Below the pieces are notes generated by a model. It worked only from the letters and a program-made list of their open reading frames with translations. It did no database searches and was not told the DNA's origin. Of a stretch of DNA of 32,000 bases, positions 21,692 to 25,717 are shown piece by piece. Both the position numbers and the translations under genes were made by a program. The stretch comes from Candidatus Paracaedimonas acanthamoebae (GTDB lineage Bacteria > Pseudomonadota > Alphaproteobacteria > Caedimonadales > Caedimonadaceae): assembly GCA_000743035.1 (NCBI GenBank), contig CP008936.1, positions 1,230,001-1,262,000 on the forward strand, in the 5' to 3' direction. The first letter of the stretch is position 1. Every line of letters begins with the position of its first letter.

Positions 21692-22462
21692 CTAACTCTT
21701 TGCCTTGTCGCGAATGCATTCATATAAACTAATTGCAGCCGCGTTTGAAACATTTAATGTTGAAAAATGAGAACTCGTTGGCAAACGTGCTAGAAAATCA
21801 CAACTTTCTTGAGTTAAACGCCGCAACCCTTCACCTTCTGCCCCCAGAATAATATTTGTTTTTCCTGTCAGATTTAAATCCGCTAATAAAGTACTCCCTT
21901 TTTCATCAAGACCTACATGCCAGAAACCATATTCTTTCATTTTCTCAAGCGCACGTGCAAGATTGGTCACACGCAAGATTGAGACCCACTCAAGAGCTCC
22001 CGAGGCTGTCTTAGCAACAATAGGAGAGTTTTCATCTGGTGTATTGCGATCAGGTAATATCAGTGCTTTAGCACCAAAGGCCGCCGCTGATCTCAAAATA
22101 GCTCCTAGGTTATGAGGATCTGTAATTTGATCAAGGGTGAGCACCACACATGAGTCTTCAACATATTCGAGACTTTCAATACCTTTTTCTTCAAATCTAT
22201 TCACAAGGATAGCAACGCCTTGATGAACAGCTCCTTCTGGAAAAAGGGAATGGAACTTTTGTCGGTCTACCTTTTCAATTGAAAGATGTGGCCGCCCTGA
22301 AAGATCAAGCTCGTTAAGGAGAGAGTCTTGAAGATAAACCACCTTATAACATTGGCGCTCAATATTTAATAAAGCCGCCTTTACAGCATGGAGCCCATAA
22401 ATCCAAAACGTATTTTTATGTGTAGCAGAGTCCTGATTTTTATTCATGAGCTTTTCTAGCAT
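21692..22462 (-). CDS. rlmB: SpoU/TrmH-family RNA 2-prime-O-methyltransferase (RlmB-like)
   Basis: N-terminal substrate-binding-type segment (IYGLHAVKAALLN) and SpoU methylase motifs (DQITDPHNLGAILRSAAAFG, NIILGAEGEGL, LNVSNAAAISLYE). The RlmB versus other TrmH subfamily assignment is tentative. Confidence 0.85.
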   Translation of the reverse strand: MLEKLMNKNQDSATHKNTFWIYGLHAVKAALLNIERQCYKVVYLQDSLLNELDLSGRPHLSIEKVDRQKFHSLFPEGAVHQGVAILVNRFEEKGIESLEYVEDSCVVLTLDQITDPHNLGAILRSAAAFGAKALILPDRNTPDENSPIVAKTASGALEWVSILRVTNLARALEKMKEYGFWHVGLDEKGSTLLADLNLTGKTNIILGAEGEGLRRLTQESCDFLARLPTSSHFSTLNVSNAAAISLYECIRDKAKS

Positions 22463-22503: not shown

Positions 22504-23730
22504 TTATACCGAACCTAAAGCTTTTTTATAAGAGGGGTGCCTCCTCAATGTTACGGTATGCATGATTAATGCAAACATTGAAGTAACGAACCCAAAGATA
22601 AAAATATTAGAAAGATGAGTGTTTGCAATCCACCCTGAAATACTTCCAGCGAGGAGAGAAGAAACACCTGAAATAATATAAAAAATACCGATGGCTGTCC
22701 CCATAATCTTTTTAGGCGCAATATCGGCTATGAGCGCTGTGAATAAAATTTGTGAGGTACTGCGTTGTGCCCCCCAAAATAAAACACCTAATAATCCAAG
22801 CCACATATCCCCCGCAAAGATAAAACATACGTTGCAAAGGATCAAAGAAACATAAGAAAAATAAAGCAATTTCTCTCGCCCTACTTTGTCTGAAAGATGC
22901 CCTATTGGATAACTGCACAAAACCGAAATAAAATTAAAAATCCCAATTGTTGCCGTACAAACAGGAAGTGGGGCTCCTAATTCTTTTAAACGTAAAGCTA
23001 AAAATCCATCACTAAAACGAGCAAGCATAAAAATGGCAGCAATTCCAATTGCCATCCAATACTTAGGAGGCAACTTTTTCATATCTACAAAAGAGATTTT
23101 GTTTCTTTCGTTAGGCACTTCAGAAGTGTTTTTTTCCTGAATATTCGTCTCATGCATATATCTCCATATAATGAACAAAGCCGCTAGGACAGGTAAAAAG
23201 CCAATCCATAAGATAAGACGGTAGTCTTCAGTGAAAAATATTAAACTAGAAACAAGCAATGGCCCTATGACACAACCGATTGTTTTTCCTGTCATCATGA
23301 TACCATAAGCTGCCCCCCTTTTGGACGAAGCACAAATGTCAGCAACATACGCATCTCGAGGAGTCGCAATAACGCCATTGCTAATGCGTTCTAATACCTT
23401 TGAAACTATGACCGCAAATGAACCATTTGCTAAAATAAAAAAAGGCTTTGAAAGCGCTGCCAAGAAAACGCCAAATATGAGGGTTGGTTTTTTCTTGCGA
23501 AAGTAATCACTGCTTACACCTGAGGAAAGTTTACTAATCTGAGATAAAGCTTCAGCAAACCCTTCTATAGCTCCCATCGAAAAAGTACTTAGGCCAAGGA
23601 CTGTCGTAATAAAGAAAGGAGAAATGCTAAAAGCCATTGCTGTTGCAACTGCAACCAATAAATTAGCAAAGGTTAAGGCCCAAATTTCTAAAGGAAGATG
23701 GGAAAATTTATTTTTTAAAAGCTTAATCAT
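22504..23730 (-). CDS. MFS transporter (substrate unknown) downstream of a cobalamin riboswitch
   Basis: 408 aa with about 12 hydrophobic segments in a 6+6 arrangement around a central charged loop (HETNIQEKNTSEVPNERNK). MFS-like loop motif GHLSDKVGREK. GGGAG lies upstream of the ATG. Confidence 0.85.
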   Translation of the reverse strand: MIKLLKNKFSHLPLEIWALTFANLLVAVATAMAFSISPFFITTVLGLSTFSMGAIEGFAEALSQISKLSSGVSSDYFRKKKPTLIFGVFLAALSKPFFILANGSFAVIVSKVLERISNGVIATPRDAYVADICASSKRGAAYGIMMTGKTIGCVIGPLLVSSLIFFTEDYRLILWIGFLPVLAALFIIWRYMHETNIQEKNTSEVPNERNKISFVDMKKLPPKYWMAIGIAAIFMLARFSDGFLALRLKELGAPLPVCTATIGIFNFISVLCSYPIGHLSDKVGREKLLYFSYVSLILCNVCFIFAGDMWLGLLGVLFWGAQRSTSQILFTALIADIAPKKIMGTAIGIFYIISGVSSLLAGSISGWIANTHLSNIFIFGFVTSMFALIMHTVTLRRHPSYKKALGSV

Positions 23731-23838
23731 TTATTTATAGCTCCCAATCTTACTTTTTACCTTAAAACATGCAAACAAATGGATAATAGATTGCAAAAGC
23801 GGAATGAGAAATAAGCGACATGTTAAAGTTTGTTGCAT
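23731..23838 (-). CDS. possible 35-codon leader/upstream ORF
   Basis: ATG at 23838 is preceded by CAAGGAAAGATC. It encodes MQQTLTCRLFLIPLLQSIIHLFACFKVKSKIGSYK. Its TAA (23733-23731) directly abuts the MFS ATG (TAAATG). It lies between the riboswitch aptamer and the transporter. Confidence 0.3.
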   Translation of the reverse strand: MQQTLTCRLFLIPLLQSIIHLFACFKVKSKIGSYK

Positions 23839-23931
23839 GATCTTTCCTTGTTAATAAGCAAAGGGTCCACGCAAAGCAATGAAATATTTTCATACGCTTT
23901 CATCAGTGCACCCCGCCTGATGTTATCGTCC

Positions 23932-24118
23932 ATTATCATAAGGCAGGTCTCCTGGCTTCTGGGTCACGGTATTCTTTATTGTCTTCCCAGGAAATCCAGT
24001 GACATTTCAAAAAGAACACTAACCAATCACAGTTGCGGGGGCAGCTCTAGCTTTGCTATTAAAACTTACTAGATTCCCTTTTAAACAGAGAAAAAACATC
24101 CCTGTACCTTAAGATAAT
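23932..24118 (-). promoter_or_regulatory. cobalamin (B12) riboswitch aptamer
   Basis: The minus strand reads ...AAAAGGGAAUCUAG...CUAGAGCUGCCCCCGCAACUGUGAUUGG...CACUGGAUUUCCUGGGAAGAC...AGAAGCCAGGAGACCUGCC. This contains the conserved GGGAA, GCUGCCCCCGCAACUGU and CACUG...GGGAAG cores and a B12 box (23942-23957). A closing helix AUUAUCUUAAGG (24118-24107) pairs 11/12 with CCUUAUGAUAAU (23943-23932). Confidence 0.85.
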
Positions 24119-24125
24119 TTTTAGA

Positions 24126-24153
24126 AACATAACAAAAAAGATTAAACCGTCAA
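24126..24153 (-). promoter_or_regulatory. putative sigma-70 promoter of the riboswitch leader
   Basis: Minus strand: TTGACG (24153-24148), 16-nt spacer, TATGTT (24131-24126). The predicted start, about 7 nt downstream, coincides with the 5-prime end of the P1 helix. Confidence 0.4.
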
Positions 24154-24199
24154 CAACTTTAATGATGGTTTCGTAAAGTCTAAGAAATATGTAAAATGC

Positions 24200-24226
24200 A
24201 GCCAAGAAGGTATAACCTTCTTAGCT
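24200..24226 (-). terminator. hairpin terminator downstream of the Sel1-repeat gene
   Basis: 11-bp stem (one G-U pair) AGCUAAGAAGG/CCUUCUUGGCU with loop UUAUA on the minus strand, followed by GCAUUUU. It lies 27 nt after the stop at 24253. Confidence 0.5.
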
Positions 24227-24252: not shown

Positions 24253-25575
24253 TTATATCAACGAGCGGTTATAAGCCTTTAAAATATCCTCGATTTCTTG
24301 CTTTTCTGTAGAGAATAGCTCCATTAATTTTTTATCCGCCAACCAATACTGTTGATCAGAGGCTTTTTTAAGCCATCTCTTTGCTACTTTTGGTTTACCT
24401 TGAGCTAATAACTCAAGACCATATTGATATTGAGCGACATCCAACCCTTGTGTTCCTGAAGCTGCTTCCTTGAGATGCTTCAATGCAGATTTTTCATTCC
24501 CTCTAGATTTTTCAATCATATAAAGTCGATAAAACGTATCCTTAAAGTCAGGGTTTTCTTTCGTCACAGCTAACAATAACTTATGAACTTCAAGACTAAG
24601 TGGCTCATCTATAAGCATACGACTTGCTTGCATATAGGTCTTTTTCCACTTCTCACTTGCTGTAATTCTTTCACCAACAAATGGGAAAAGGGGTACGCGC
24701 GAATGAAGGCATGGTATATTAAGCTCTGAACGTACCTTTATCTGCTCTTGCTTTATATAAAGAGCCTCAATTTGAGCATAACGTCTGTGAAGCGTATCCA
24801 GTATTTTTTCTTGTAAGGCAATACTTTTTTTATCACCTTGCTGGATAGCACGATCAAGCCATCTTAAAGCCTCTGTAGACTTCTTTTGGCGATATAAACG
24901 CTGAGCGAGCGTATATTGCGCTCCTACCTCATCAAGCTCAGCCCATAGTTTAAGTTTTTGGTTAGAAGCATTTTTAAACTTCTCATTAGTTACTAAATTA
25001 TTCAAGTATTCGCGTGTTCTTGGACTTAATGGCTGTGCAAAAAGCTGGTTCCTATCCGTAATAACTGCTCCACGTGTATGCCGTGTTGGCTTCCCAGAGA
25101 CTTCCTTAGCTTCTGGCATTTGACTATCATTTGAAGAAACTATTGTTGGTGCCATTACCTTAAATTTTAAGACAGGAACAGGTGACTTTTTTACTCTATG
25201 GGACTTTATAGCCTCTCTAGCCACAGGAAGAAAAACTGATAATTTTACTTTCTCGCGAAGGGGTTGTGGAGAAGTCTCATTCTGATCTTTTTCACTTTCA
25301 AACTCATAGCTACCTAAATCATGAATCTCTAAAGTATTCCGAAAATCTACATGTTTTCTACCACTCGATTGCTGAACTTCCATTTTAGCAACTTTAAGAG
25401 CATGCTCTTTTAATTCTCTAAGACGATCATATCTTGGCGGCAGGTTGTAAGTATGAGGTTGAAAAAGTCGAGGGGATTCATCATCGATTGTTGTGTTTTT
25501 TGAATATCCCCCAGTTACAACAACAGATAAACTAATAACAGAAGAAGAAAGAAGGGAGAGAACTTTTGAATTCAT
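24253..25575 (-). CDS. secreted Sel1-like/TPR repeat protein
   Basis: Start set at the ATG at 25575 (MNSKVLSLLSSSVISLSVVV), which has GGAGG 6 nt upstream. The C-terminal half contains Sel1-like repeats (AQYTLAQRLYRQKKSTEALRWLDRAIQQGDKKS; AQYQYGLELLAQGKPKVAKRWLKKASDQQY). Confidence 0.7.
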   Translation of the reverse strand: MNSKVLSLLSSSVISLSVVVTGGYSKNTTIDDESPRLFQPHTYNLPPRYDRLRELKEHALKVAKMEVQQSSGRKHVDFRNTLEIHDLGSYEFESEKDQNETSPQPLREKVKLSVFLPVAREAIKSHRVKKSPVPVLKFKVMAPTIVSSNDSQMPEAKEVSGKPTRHTRGAVITDRNQLFAQPLSPRTREYLNNLVTNEKFKNASNQKLKLWAELDEVGAQYTLAQRLYRQKKSTEALRWLDRAIQQGDKKSIALQEKILDTLHRRYAQIEALYIKQEQIKVRSELNIPCLHSRVPLFPFVGERITASEKWKKTYMQASRMLIDEPLSLEVHKLLLAVTKENPDFKDTFYRLYMIEKSRGNEKSALKHLKEAASGTQGLDVAQYQYGLELLAQGKPKVAKRWLKKASDQQYWLADKKLMELFSTEKQEIEDILKAYNRSLI

Positions 25576-25717
25576 AGCAGGCCTCCATAATGTTGATAGC
25601 AAAGAGTTATCTTTAAAATTCTAGAATTCTACCTTATAAAGTCAACAATATTTATCAGTAGCCAAACCAGTCATTTTAAAGTATTATTCGCCTGTTCTTA
25701 ACAAAACCCTCTCTTTA

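Follow-up and report, generated by a model that had tools for sequence, protein, structure and literature searches.

A standard cobalamin riboswitch with unusual wiring upstream of an MFS transporter in the amoeba endosymbiont Candidatus Paracaedimonas acanthamoebae

Why should a cobalamin (B12) riboswitch stand in front of a transporter of the major facilitator superfamily (MFS)? The question is raised by a 32,000-nucleotide stretch of the genome of Candidatus Paracaedimonas acanthamoebae (contig CP008936.1, positions 1,230,001 through 1,262,000; herein the window), whose minus strand carries such a riboswitch and, downstream of it, IM40_06545 (AIL13231.1), a gene annotated as encoding a hypothetical protein. 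The organism is an obligate endosymbiont of Acanthamoeba and belongs to the Caedimonadaceae (Holosporales). Its genome is reduced, as a preliminary description of the locus had it (1.7 Mb, 38% GC), and host-dependent, with cofactors reported as host-supplied (PMC11909080). Host-dependent bacteria have typically lost their cobalamin riboswitches (PMC4779614), which makes a retained one notable. The genes under cobalamin control fall into four categories, namely B12 biosynthesis, B12 transport, cobalt transport and B12-independent isozymes (PMC3766115), and the MFS gene lies outside all of them, as that description had also claimed. It offered two readings of the cargo: an undescribed importer of corrinoids, cobalt or a precursor, or an importer of a metabolite required only under B12 shortage. 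The system described here combines an ordinary aptamer with an unusual wiring that looks recently acquired. On balance, we favor the view that it is a cobalamin OFF riboswitch of the adenosylcobalamin (AdoCbl) type that was wired, in one lineage, to an old housekeeping MFS transporter and that follows a B12-sparing logic.

Searching the window with cmscan gave a single Rfam match, to RF00174 on the minus strand (Table 1), which covers model positions 1 through 189 of 189 and, as had been anticipated, scores well above the gathering cutoff (119.5 against 31.5 bits; E = 1.1e-29). The conserved cores quoted earlier are all present, both as GGGAA, GCUGCCCCCGCAACUGU and CACUGG...CCUGGGAAG and in the form GGGAA, GCUGCCCCCGCAACUG and GCCACUG...GGGAAG, together with the B12 box AGCCAGGAGACCUGCC at 23957 through 23942. 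The aptamer also has the peripheral P6 extension typical of AdoCbl-type members, and by each of these sequence-level tests it is an ordinary member of RF00174. Folding of five orthologous copies with RNAalifold yields a P1 closing helix of 11 pairs (24118 through 24107 with 23943 through 23932), in agreement with the helix first drawn, within a consensus of 55 pairs. Few of these are broken and five show compensatory double-sided changes (three in P1 and two in P5), a covariation signal of limited statistical power given an alignment of n = 5 sequences.

The five copies come from diverged lineages, in each of which promoter, aptamer, leader and MFS gene form one unit. Besides the window, RF00174 was matched in Caedibacter sp. 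38-128 and near-identical contigs (L001, L002, L006, L031 and L037; 120 to 121.8 bits), at L041 (116.8 bits), at L030 (114.4 bits) and in Caedibacter sp. 37-49 (L007 and L036; 67.2 bits). The core is likewise complete in sp. 38-128, L041 and L030, and several of its positions are mutated in sp. 37-49. Aptamer identity between the window and sp. 38-128, L030 and sp. 37-49 is 0.91, 0.77 and 0.70, respectively; the corresponding values for 4-fold degenerate sites of the MFS gene are 0.61, 0.56 and 0.52. Because the aptamer is conserved beyond these sites and carries compensatory pairs, the alignments make a good case that purifying selection acts on the RNA, which is hence functional. The MFS gene is the only constant cargo of the riboswitch, the gene 3′ of it being a different one in L030.

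The promoter TTGACG-16-TATGTT noted previously was recovered by a consensus scan, with a TG preceding the −10 hexamer. Promoter-like sites occur at chance level in this AT-rich region (5 found against 6.4 expected), and the case for this one lies in its near-invariance: across the five lineages the −35 hexamer is invariant and the −10 hexamer reads TATGTT, TATTCT or TATCTT. The element probably works as a promoter, with a predicted transcription start at the 5′ end of P1.

Caedibacter sp. 37-49 serves as a natural negative control, with a switch in incipient decay. When branch-specific changes are polarised by taking the state shared by the window and sp. 38-128 as ancestral, 23 of 176 aptamer sites have changed on the sp. 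37-49 branch only and 8 on that of its sister L030 only, while 87 4-fold sites show 9 and 10 changes, respectively. The changes reach the ligand-binding core, where GCUGCCCCCGC has become GCUUUCCUUGC, GUCACUGG has become AUUAUGGG and AGCCAGG has become AGUCAGG. The MFS protein of sp. 37-49 is intact and 93% identical to that of L030. Judged from these counts, the aptamer seems to be evolving at close to the neutral rate in a lineage that has retained the transporter.

What, then, does the transporter carry? The first sizeable gene downstream of the riboswitch encodes, as reported at the outset, a 12-helix MFS protein. It matches PF07690 (MFS_1; E = 2.2e-50, residues 19 through 361), its AlphaFold2 model consists of 12 long helices (pLDDT 83.6, pTM 0.82), and 465 MFS entries of the PDB match it at E ≤ 0.001; the profile and the predicted two-domain, 12-transmembrane fold place it in the superfamily. 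Profiling against subfamilies, as had been suggested, stops at this level. No NCBIfam subfamily cutoff is reached (the best scores are 74, 52, 45, 38 and 29.5 bits against cutoffs of 131, 408, 475, 320 and 335), and none of the characterised MFS subfamilies tested (DHA1/Tet/NorA, OFA/OxlT, OPA/PgtP-UhpT, MCT/SfMCT and ACS) accommodates the protein. Nor is it a canonical riboswitch cargo: profile scans match it to PF07690 and PF00083 only, and to none of the TonB receptor, ABC, ECF, BtuM, cob/cbi, metE and nrd families. As to substrate, the PDB profile search, Foldseek and NCBIfam returned generic results only. The best profile and fold matches (E from 5e-8 to 1e-11, TM-scores from 0.72 to 0.77) have NorA, OxlT, SLC37A4, MCT1/2, YajR and VMAT2 as the closest solved relatives. 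The 12-helix fold is thus held in common with DHA1 (NorA), OFA (OxlT), OPA (SLC37A4/UhpT) and MCT transporters; the identity is only 13 to 20%, and IM40_06545 belongs to a separate family. As the nearest structures all carry small solutes, the substrate is most likely a small metabolite rather than a corrinoid, although these neighbors are weak evidence against a substrate of 1.3 to 1.6 kDa.

That family forms a tight group of its own, with more than 60 invariant residues over 20 members at 44 to 90% identity. It is found mostly in Holosporales and in metagenome-assembled genomes (MAGs) labelled Francisellaceae, Chlamydiales and others, with one locus per genome found. Loop and helix motifs recognised by eye include DYFRKKKP after helix 2, RxxNG in helix 4 and G-x3-GP in helix 5. 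A different, AmpG-like MFS protein (PF13000, Acatn) is encoded in Caedimonas sp. (L040, 4724 through 6076) behind ~500 nt of non-coding sequence with no Rfam match.

Conservation of the riboswitch-MFS pairing among relatives, which had been proposed as a check, holds for the five lineages of one clade and fails beyond it. At the gathering threshold RF00174 is matched in none of 14 assessable MFS ortholog lineages at 48 to 79% identity, and the eight of these with upstream room gave nothing even at E ≤ 1. B12-related neighbor genes are absent from all 14, and more distant homologs in Azotobacter and Pseudomonas (35% identity) lack the pairing too, their genes lying behind dnaB or a PAP2 gene. 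P0008 (L023), the nearest outgroup, shares 79 to 80% identity with each of the five riboswitch lineages, and its upstream sequence extends for just 98 nt. In L003 (4001 through 5293), L004 (4001 through 5278) and L025 (4876 through 6138) the MFS gene ends an operon of leuS, lptE and an unannotated, holA-like gene of ~330 aa; it overlaps the preceding gene or lies at most 24 nt from it, head-on to parB-parA-gidB-rho. In L009 (Nucleicultricaceae; 467 through 1786) its start overlaps the preceding open reading frame (ORF) and three opposite-strand ORFs of parB, parA and gidB size follow, an assignment made from ORF layout only. Since L003, L004, L025 and L009 share this arrangement, the end of the leuS-lptE operon is probably the ancestral position of the gene. 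Other orthologs adjoin dnaA, dCTP deaminase (dcd), a HAD hydrolase or an HI0933-like flavoprotein.

The transporter shows no rate acceleration in the riboswitch clade (55 to 63% identity, against 54 to 64% for P0008). Recurrent linkage to B12 across the family, the criterion behind BtuM and CbrT, was not found; the linkage is confined to one clade of five lineages. With the orthologs outside the clade lacking the riboswitch and sitting in housekeeping contexts, and with no shift in rate, B12 control is, on this comparison of loci, best described as having arisen within one shallow clade, the transporter itself being otherwise unchanged.

How the riboswitch could act on the MFS gene has to be sought in a leader of ~195 nt between the aptamer and the MFS start. 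An alignment of the five leaders contains only two conserved elements, the hairpins H1 and H2, which follow directly 3′ of P1. In H1, CAUCAGGC pairs downstream with GC-A-CUG(A/G)UG; the 3′ arm holds an AUG (23903 through 23901) and the loop a GGGG run resembling a Shine-Dalgarno sequence. Its folding energy is −8.5, −7.9, −7.2 and −5.2 kcal/mol in four lineages, maintained despite A-U to G-U changes, and it is abolished (0.0 kcal/mol) in the decaying sp. 37-49 copy. H2 is followed by UUUUAUU in two lineages and by UUUGCG in the window; the terminator scan did not score it, as it is too GC-poor, and it is terminator-like, with a U-run, only in L030 and sp. 37-49. The preliminary description had invoked instead a competing hairpin GCCUUAUGAU.../...AUAACAUCAGGC that re-uses the 3′ strand of P1. 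This hairpin can be drawn; it is weak and unconserved (−5.0, −1.6, −5.3, −1.6 and −1.3 kcal/mol in the five lineages), never appears in the minimum-free-energy fold, and was set aside as the switching hairpin in favor of the stronger H1 pairing of CAUCAGGC. A further pairing between aptamer core and platform, CCCCGC/GCGGGG, considered as a candidate for the apo state, occurs in the minimum-free-energy fold of L030, costs 7 kcal/mol in the window and has no clean covariation.

The start codon buried in H1 belongs not to the MFS gene but to a short upstream ORF (uORF) at 23903. Its (A/G)UG lies exactly 22 nt past the aptamer in all lineages, a point that, like the length of the leader, goes beyond the preliminary description. 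The uORF is 26, 46, 26, 15 and 26 aa long in the five lineages, its sequence is not conserved past ~5 codons, and it is disrupted by frameshifts between lineages and by a deletion of ~55 nt in two of them; it either serves in regulation as a leader ORF or is what remains of a lost cargo gene. The Shine-Dalgarno sequence of the MFS gene, GGGAG (23745 through 23741), stands 100 to 170 nt past the platform. Because H1 gates the start of the uORF and the MFS ribosome-binding site lies that far beyond, control of the transporter by the riboswitch is probably indirect. Predicted pairings of this ribosome-binding site with upstream pyrimidine runs are not convincing, their partners being AU-rich and varying by lineage. 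A 43-aa ORF in the leader (23893 through 23762) was considered as a gene and rejected: it has no family match, a frameshift interrupts it in sp. 38-128, most of it is missing from L030 and sp. 37-49, and its amino acid identity matches the value expected from ~85% nucleotide identity.

We propose the following scheme. Holosporales and other intracellular bacteria would share an old MFS transporter, apparently present in one copy and normally expressed from housekeeping operons. Its control by B12 would date only from the ancestor of the Paracaedimonas clade, where the MFS gene probably landed 3′ of a pre-existing riboswitch. The original cargo, starting at 23903, would have been lost or replaced. 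A start codon in a hairpin right behind the aptamer is the usual geometry of a riboswitch that gates the first codon of its cargo, and it is because H1 matches this geometry that we place the start of the lost gene there. The regulatory decision would fall within the first ~75 nt past the aptamer. With B12 bound and P1 closed, H1 would hide the (A/G)UG and the GGGG run of the leader ORF; leader translation would be lost and, possibly with a contribution from H2, transcription or stability of the MFS mRNA would decrease through polarity. Relatives would import the compound constitutively, and the riboswitch clade, needing it only when a B12-dependent route fails, would repress the transporter when B12 is plentiful. 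A metabolite required only under B12 scarcity, the second of the two readings first offered, would fit the phylogenetic pattern better than a corrinoid, cobalt or precursor importer, because it would explain constitutive operon expression in relatives, B12 repression in one clade, and the survival of the transporter where the switch decays.

Several points weigh against this scheme. The ligand response, the OFF polarity, the relay by polarity and the substrate class are parts of it that we infer, and its B12-sparing logic is a conjecture. The relay from platform to MFS gene is its weakest part: the scan found no intrinsic terminator in the leader, the leader folds no better than shuffled sequences (z = −0.85), and its composition is unconvincing for Rho loading, with a C/G ratio that does not exceed ~1 for the leader as a whole or for the short leaders and that reaches ~2 across part of the window leader only. 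The leader ORF, being unconserved, may be a relic only. The comparison loci are mostly metagenome-assembled, and absence of the riboswitch from the other relatives is no proof that their MFS proteins are unrelated to B12.

Known systems resemble the locus in part. The btuB leader of Escherichia coli and Salmonella belongs to the same RF00174 family and has the same core motifs, B12 box and peripheral extension. In both leaders a hairpin just 3′ of the aptamer holds a start codon with its ribosome-binding run, and the OFF logic is likely common to them. The btuB leader differs in that the start gated in the window opens an unconserved leader ORF of 15 to 46 codons rather than the cargo gene, and in that the cargo is an MFS gene 100 to 170 nt further on and not a TonB-dependent receptor; the L5-L13 kissing-loop complementarity known from btuB was not identified in the window riboswitch. 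The riboswitches of metE and nrdDG/nrdAB, genes for isozymes of B12-dependent enzymes and so of a recognised regulon category (PMC3766115), have the logic favored here. They repress a B12-sparing function in the presence of B12. They control an enzyme, whereas the cargo in the window is a transporter. With BtuB, BtuFCD, ECF-CbrT and BtuM the locus has in common a transporter directly 3′ of a cobalamin riboswitch, in a host genome that probably does not encode B12 synthesis; there is no sequence or family relation to them, and riboswitch linkage is not a property of the MFS family. Leaders in which a leader ORF or a riboswitch is coupled to Rho-dependent attenuation are known from Salmonella mgtA/mgtL and E. 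coli ribB. By analogy, translation of the short leader ORF could decide transcription of the distal gene in the window too, and a Rho gene is present in related genomes; the window leader differs in having no clear Rho-loading site.

The alternative that survives best, though a doubtful one, makes the riboswitch a stranded relic of a lost B12-regulated gene that still folds and may gate the short leader ORF, with no meaningful effect on an MFS gene that uses its own promoter in the leader. The platform gates a start 22 nt past the aptamer and not the MFS start 170 nt beyond, conservation is lacking in the middle of the leader, part of which is deleted, the leader contains a promoter-like TTCTCA-16-TATTAT (23810 through 23783), the sp. 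37-49 copy is in decay, and host-dependent bacteria commonly lose cobalamin riboswitches (PMC4779614). A useless aptamer would not, however, be expected to remain 77 to 91% identical, with compensatory changes, when 4-fold sites retain 56 to 61% and the neighboring protein ~50%. The internal promoter-like site is unconserved in relatives and of a kind that occurs at chance frequency, and the order aptamer-H1-H2-MFS is kept in five lineages, even where a different gene follows.

A dedicated corrinoid importer that takes up cobalamin from the amoeba cytoplasm and is feedback-repressed by its own substrate is unlikely. Acanthamoeba needs B12, and its cytoplasm should therefore hold cobalamins; a switch under selection requires that AdoCbl be obtained somehow, the family is concentrated in intracellular bacteria, and the window contains no canonical B12 transporter. 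In organisms without B12 synthesis, the transporters under riboswitch control usually serve B12 uptake (PMC3766115). Against this stand the compact size of the 408-aa protein, whose nearest structural relatives carry substrates far smaller than B12, the lack of a riboswitch or B12-related neighbor in any of the 14 orthologs outside the clade, the dnaB and PAP2 surroundings of the Azotobacter and Pseudomonas homologs, the absence of a shift in the MFS sequence once the riboswitch was gained, and the searched literature, which yielded no MFS corrinoid transporter. Sp. 37-49, in which the switch decays and the transporter stays, is a natural experiment to the same effect. These small-solute neighbors, the distribution data and sp. 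37-49 are what make the importer unlikely and what count against the first reading of the preliminary description, the pairing being limited to one clade and the orthologs to housekeeping contexts. A broader version, in which IM40_06545 and its orthologs would be the first MFS-type corrinoid importers of protist endosymbionts (Holosporales and some Francisellaceae and Chlamydiales MAGs), with riboswitch control kept in the Paracaedimonas clade and lost elsewhere through genome reduction, we consider quite improbable.

Import of cobalt or of a B12 precursor (lower ligand, cobinamide) for salvage or remodelling is highly improbable: such transporters are canonical riboswitch cargo (PMC3766115) and a small substrate would suit the compact fold, but no cob/cbi or salvage genes were found near any family member, synthesis or salvage is unexpected in a 1.7 Mb genome dependent on its host for cofactors (PMC11909080), the known cobalt importers in one survey (PMC7689651) are of the ABC, ECF, NiCoT, HupE and CorA types, its MFS entries being exporters, and the distribution that speaks against a B12 importer applies equally.

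If the riboswitch is wired to a housekeeping transporter as we favor, the case records a capture of cargo in which an existing switch took over an old gene and the native start codon persists as a stump or a leader ORF. A switch kept under selection in an obligate amoeba endosymbiont would imply that B12 status matters to the symbiont, and if the MFS protein is not a B12 carrier, its substrate would reveal a metabolite with B12-dependent demand in an intracellular bacterium. Riboswitch-adjacent transporters of unassigned function have repeatedly led to new vitamin transporters. The uncharacterised family is a testable lead of this kind, with evidence pointing away from the B12-importer reading, and it illustrates that riboswitch adjacency in a single genome is weak functional evidence until checked family-wide. 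The searchable literature contained nothing on MFS genes linked to B12 riboswitches or on B12 use in Holosporales.

Table 1. Features of the riboswitch-MFS locus (window coordinates)
Feature	Position	Strand	Basis or remark
Cobalamin riboswitch aptamer, RF00174 (clan CL00101)	23925-24126	minus	Full-length covariance-model match
Sigma-70-type promoter: TTGACG (24153-24148), 16-nt spacer, TATGTT (24131-24126)	24126-24153	minus	Consensus scan
Platform hairpin H1, CAUCAGGC-GGGGU-GC-A-CUGAUG	23901-23922	minus	Folding energy and conservation
Platform hairpin H2, AAGC-GU-AUGAA...UUCAU-U-GCUU	23874-23899	minus	Conserved in 5/5 lineages, −7.9 to −4.3 kcal/mol
uORF, 26 codons	23823-23903	minus	Start at fixed position
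Variable leader, platform to MFS start	23731-23873	minus	Poorly conserved, large indels
MFS transporter gene IM40_06545	22504-23730	minus	408 aa, 12 transmembrane helices
TPR-containing protein gene IM40_06555	24253-25602	minus	Upstream of riboswitch
Terminator-like hairpin AAGAAGGT-ATA-ACCTTCTT, 3′ of IM40_06555	24198-24226 (hairpin 24204-24222)	minus	

The remainder of the window holds housekeeping and host-interaction-type genes (ftsH, RNase R, topA, dprA, plsY, rlmB, SCO1, esterases and a patatin-like phospholipase), and profile scans of these other genes found none related to B12, a canonical B12 transporter included. The window's TPR and SCO1 proteins match IM40_06555 and IM40_06560 at 100% identity, and its MFS protein matches AIL13231.1 exactly. 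The TPR protein IM40_06555, encoded upstream of the riboswitch, has just 5 homologs in 5.8 billion clusters, every one within the riboswitch clade, and has diverged to 45 to 51% identity between lineages, against 78 to 91% for its neighbors SCO1 and the MFS protein. These comparisons identify it as a fast-evolving, lineage-specific protein, possibly a host-interaction factor. The ancestral cargo of the riboswitch was not recovered from this side: the TPR gene is specific to the clade, and the SCO1 anchor loses synteny in Caedimonas sp., whose SCO1 neighborhood (L040) shows none with the window. An older TPR-MFS synteny through L027 was rejected, as the two TPR proteins are unrelated. The terminator-like hairpin 3′ of the TPR gene, which would divide that gene from the riboswitch transcription unit, has a GC-richer counterpart with a T-run at the same position in Caedibacter sp. 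38-128 and sp. 37-49.

On the other side, 41 nt separate the MFS stop from rlmB, with no terminator-like hairpin in the gap, so that transcription from the riboswitch promoter may continue into housekeeping genes. The listed ORFs of rlmB and plsY share 62 nt (21692 through 21753), with plsY of 231 aa beginning at 21753; in relatives plsY is called at 194 to 206 aa, and its real start is probably further downstream. In L030 an ORF starting MLARGRVAIKSYQMEKNEH (1 through 1004, running off the contig) replaces rlmB after the MFS gene (1005 through 2231, minus strand). The 3′ border of the riboswitch-MFS unit is thus rearranged there, whereas the abhydrolase-esterase-SCO1-TPR order on the 5′ side is constant. 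An 80-aa plus-strand ORF (23830 through 24072), antisense to the riboswitch and running across the conserved aptamer, is almost certainly spurious.

ORFs of 100 to 340 aa without a Pfam family lie at 2033 through 2341, 4683 through 5384, 5574 through 5963, 7480 through 8752, 15204 through 16223 and 16430 through 17368. The patatin-like phospholipase (8926 through 9990) sits among them, and the content is typical of endosymbiont effector regions.

A pattern scan beyond the clade returned only unrelated cobalamin riboswitches, 35 to 51% identical to that of the window. Six come from low-GC (32 to 39%) loci: L029 (2472 through 2675), L039 (4889 through 5092), L032 (1296 through 1517), L033 (944 through 1176), L038 (3772 through 3989) and L035 (180 through 394). 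In all of these but L035, which is too short, the riboswitch lies 29 to 73 nt upstream of an ORF with a signal-peptide-like start. These ORFs are candidate TonB-dependent receptors and would probably represent the canonical arrangement, in contrast to the MFS gene. A cobalamin riboswitch scoring 110.9 bits also precedes an 875-aa ORF on a metagenomic contig of 61% GC (L034, 7500 through 7716).

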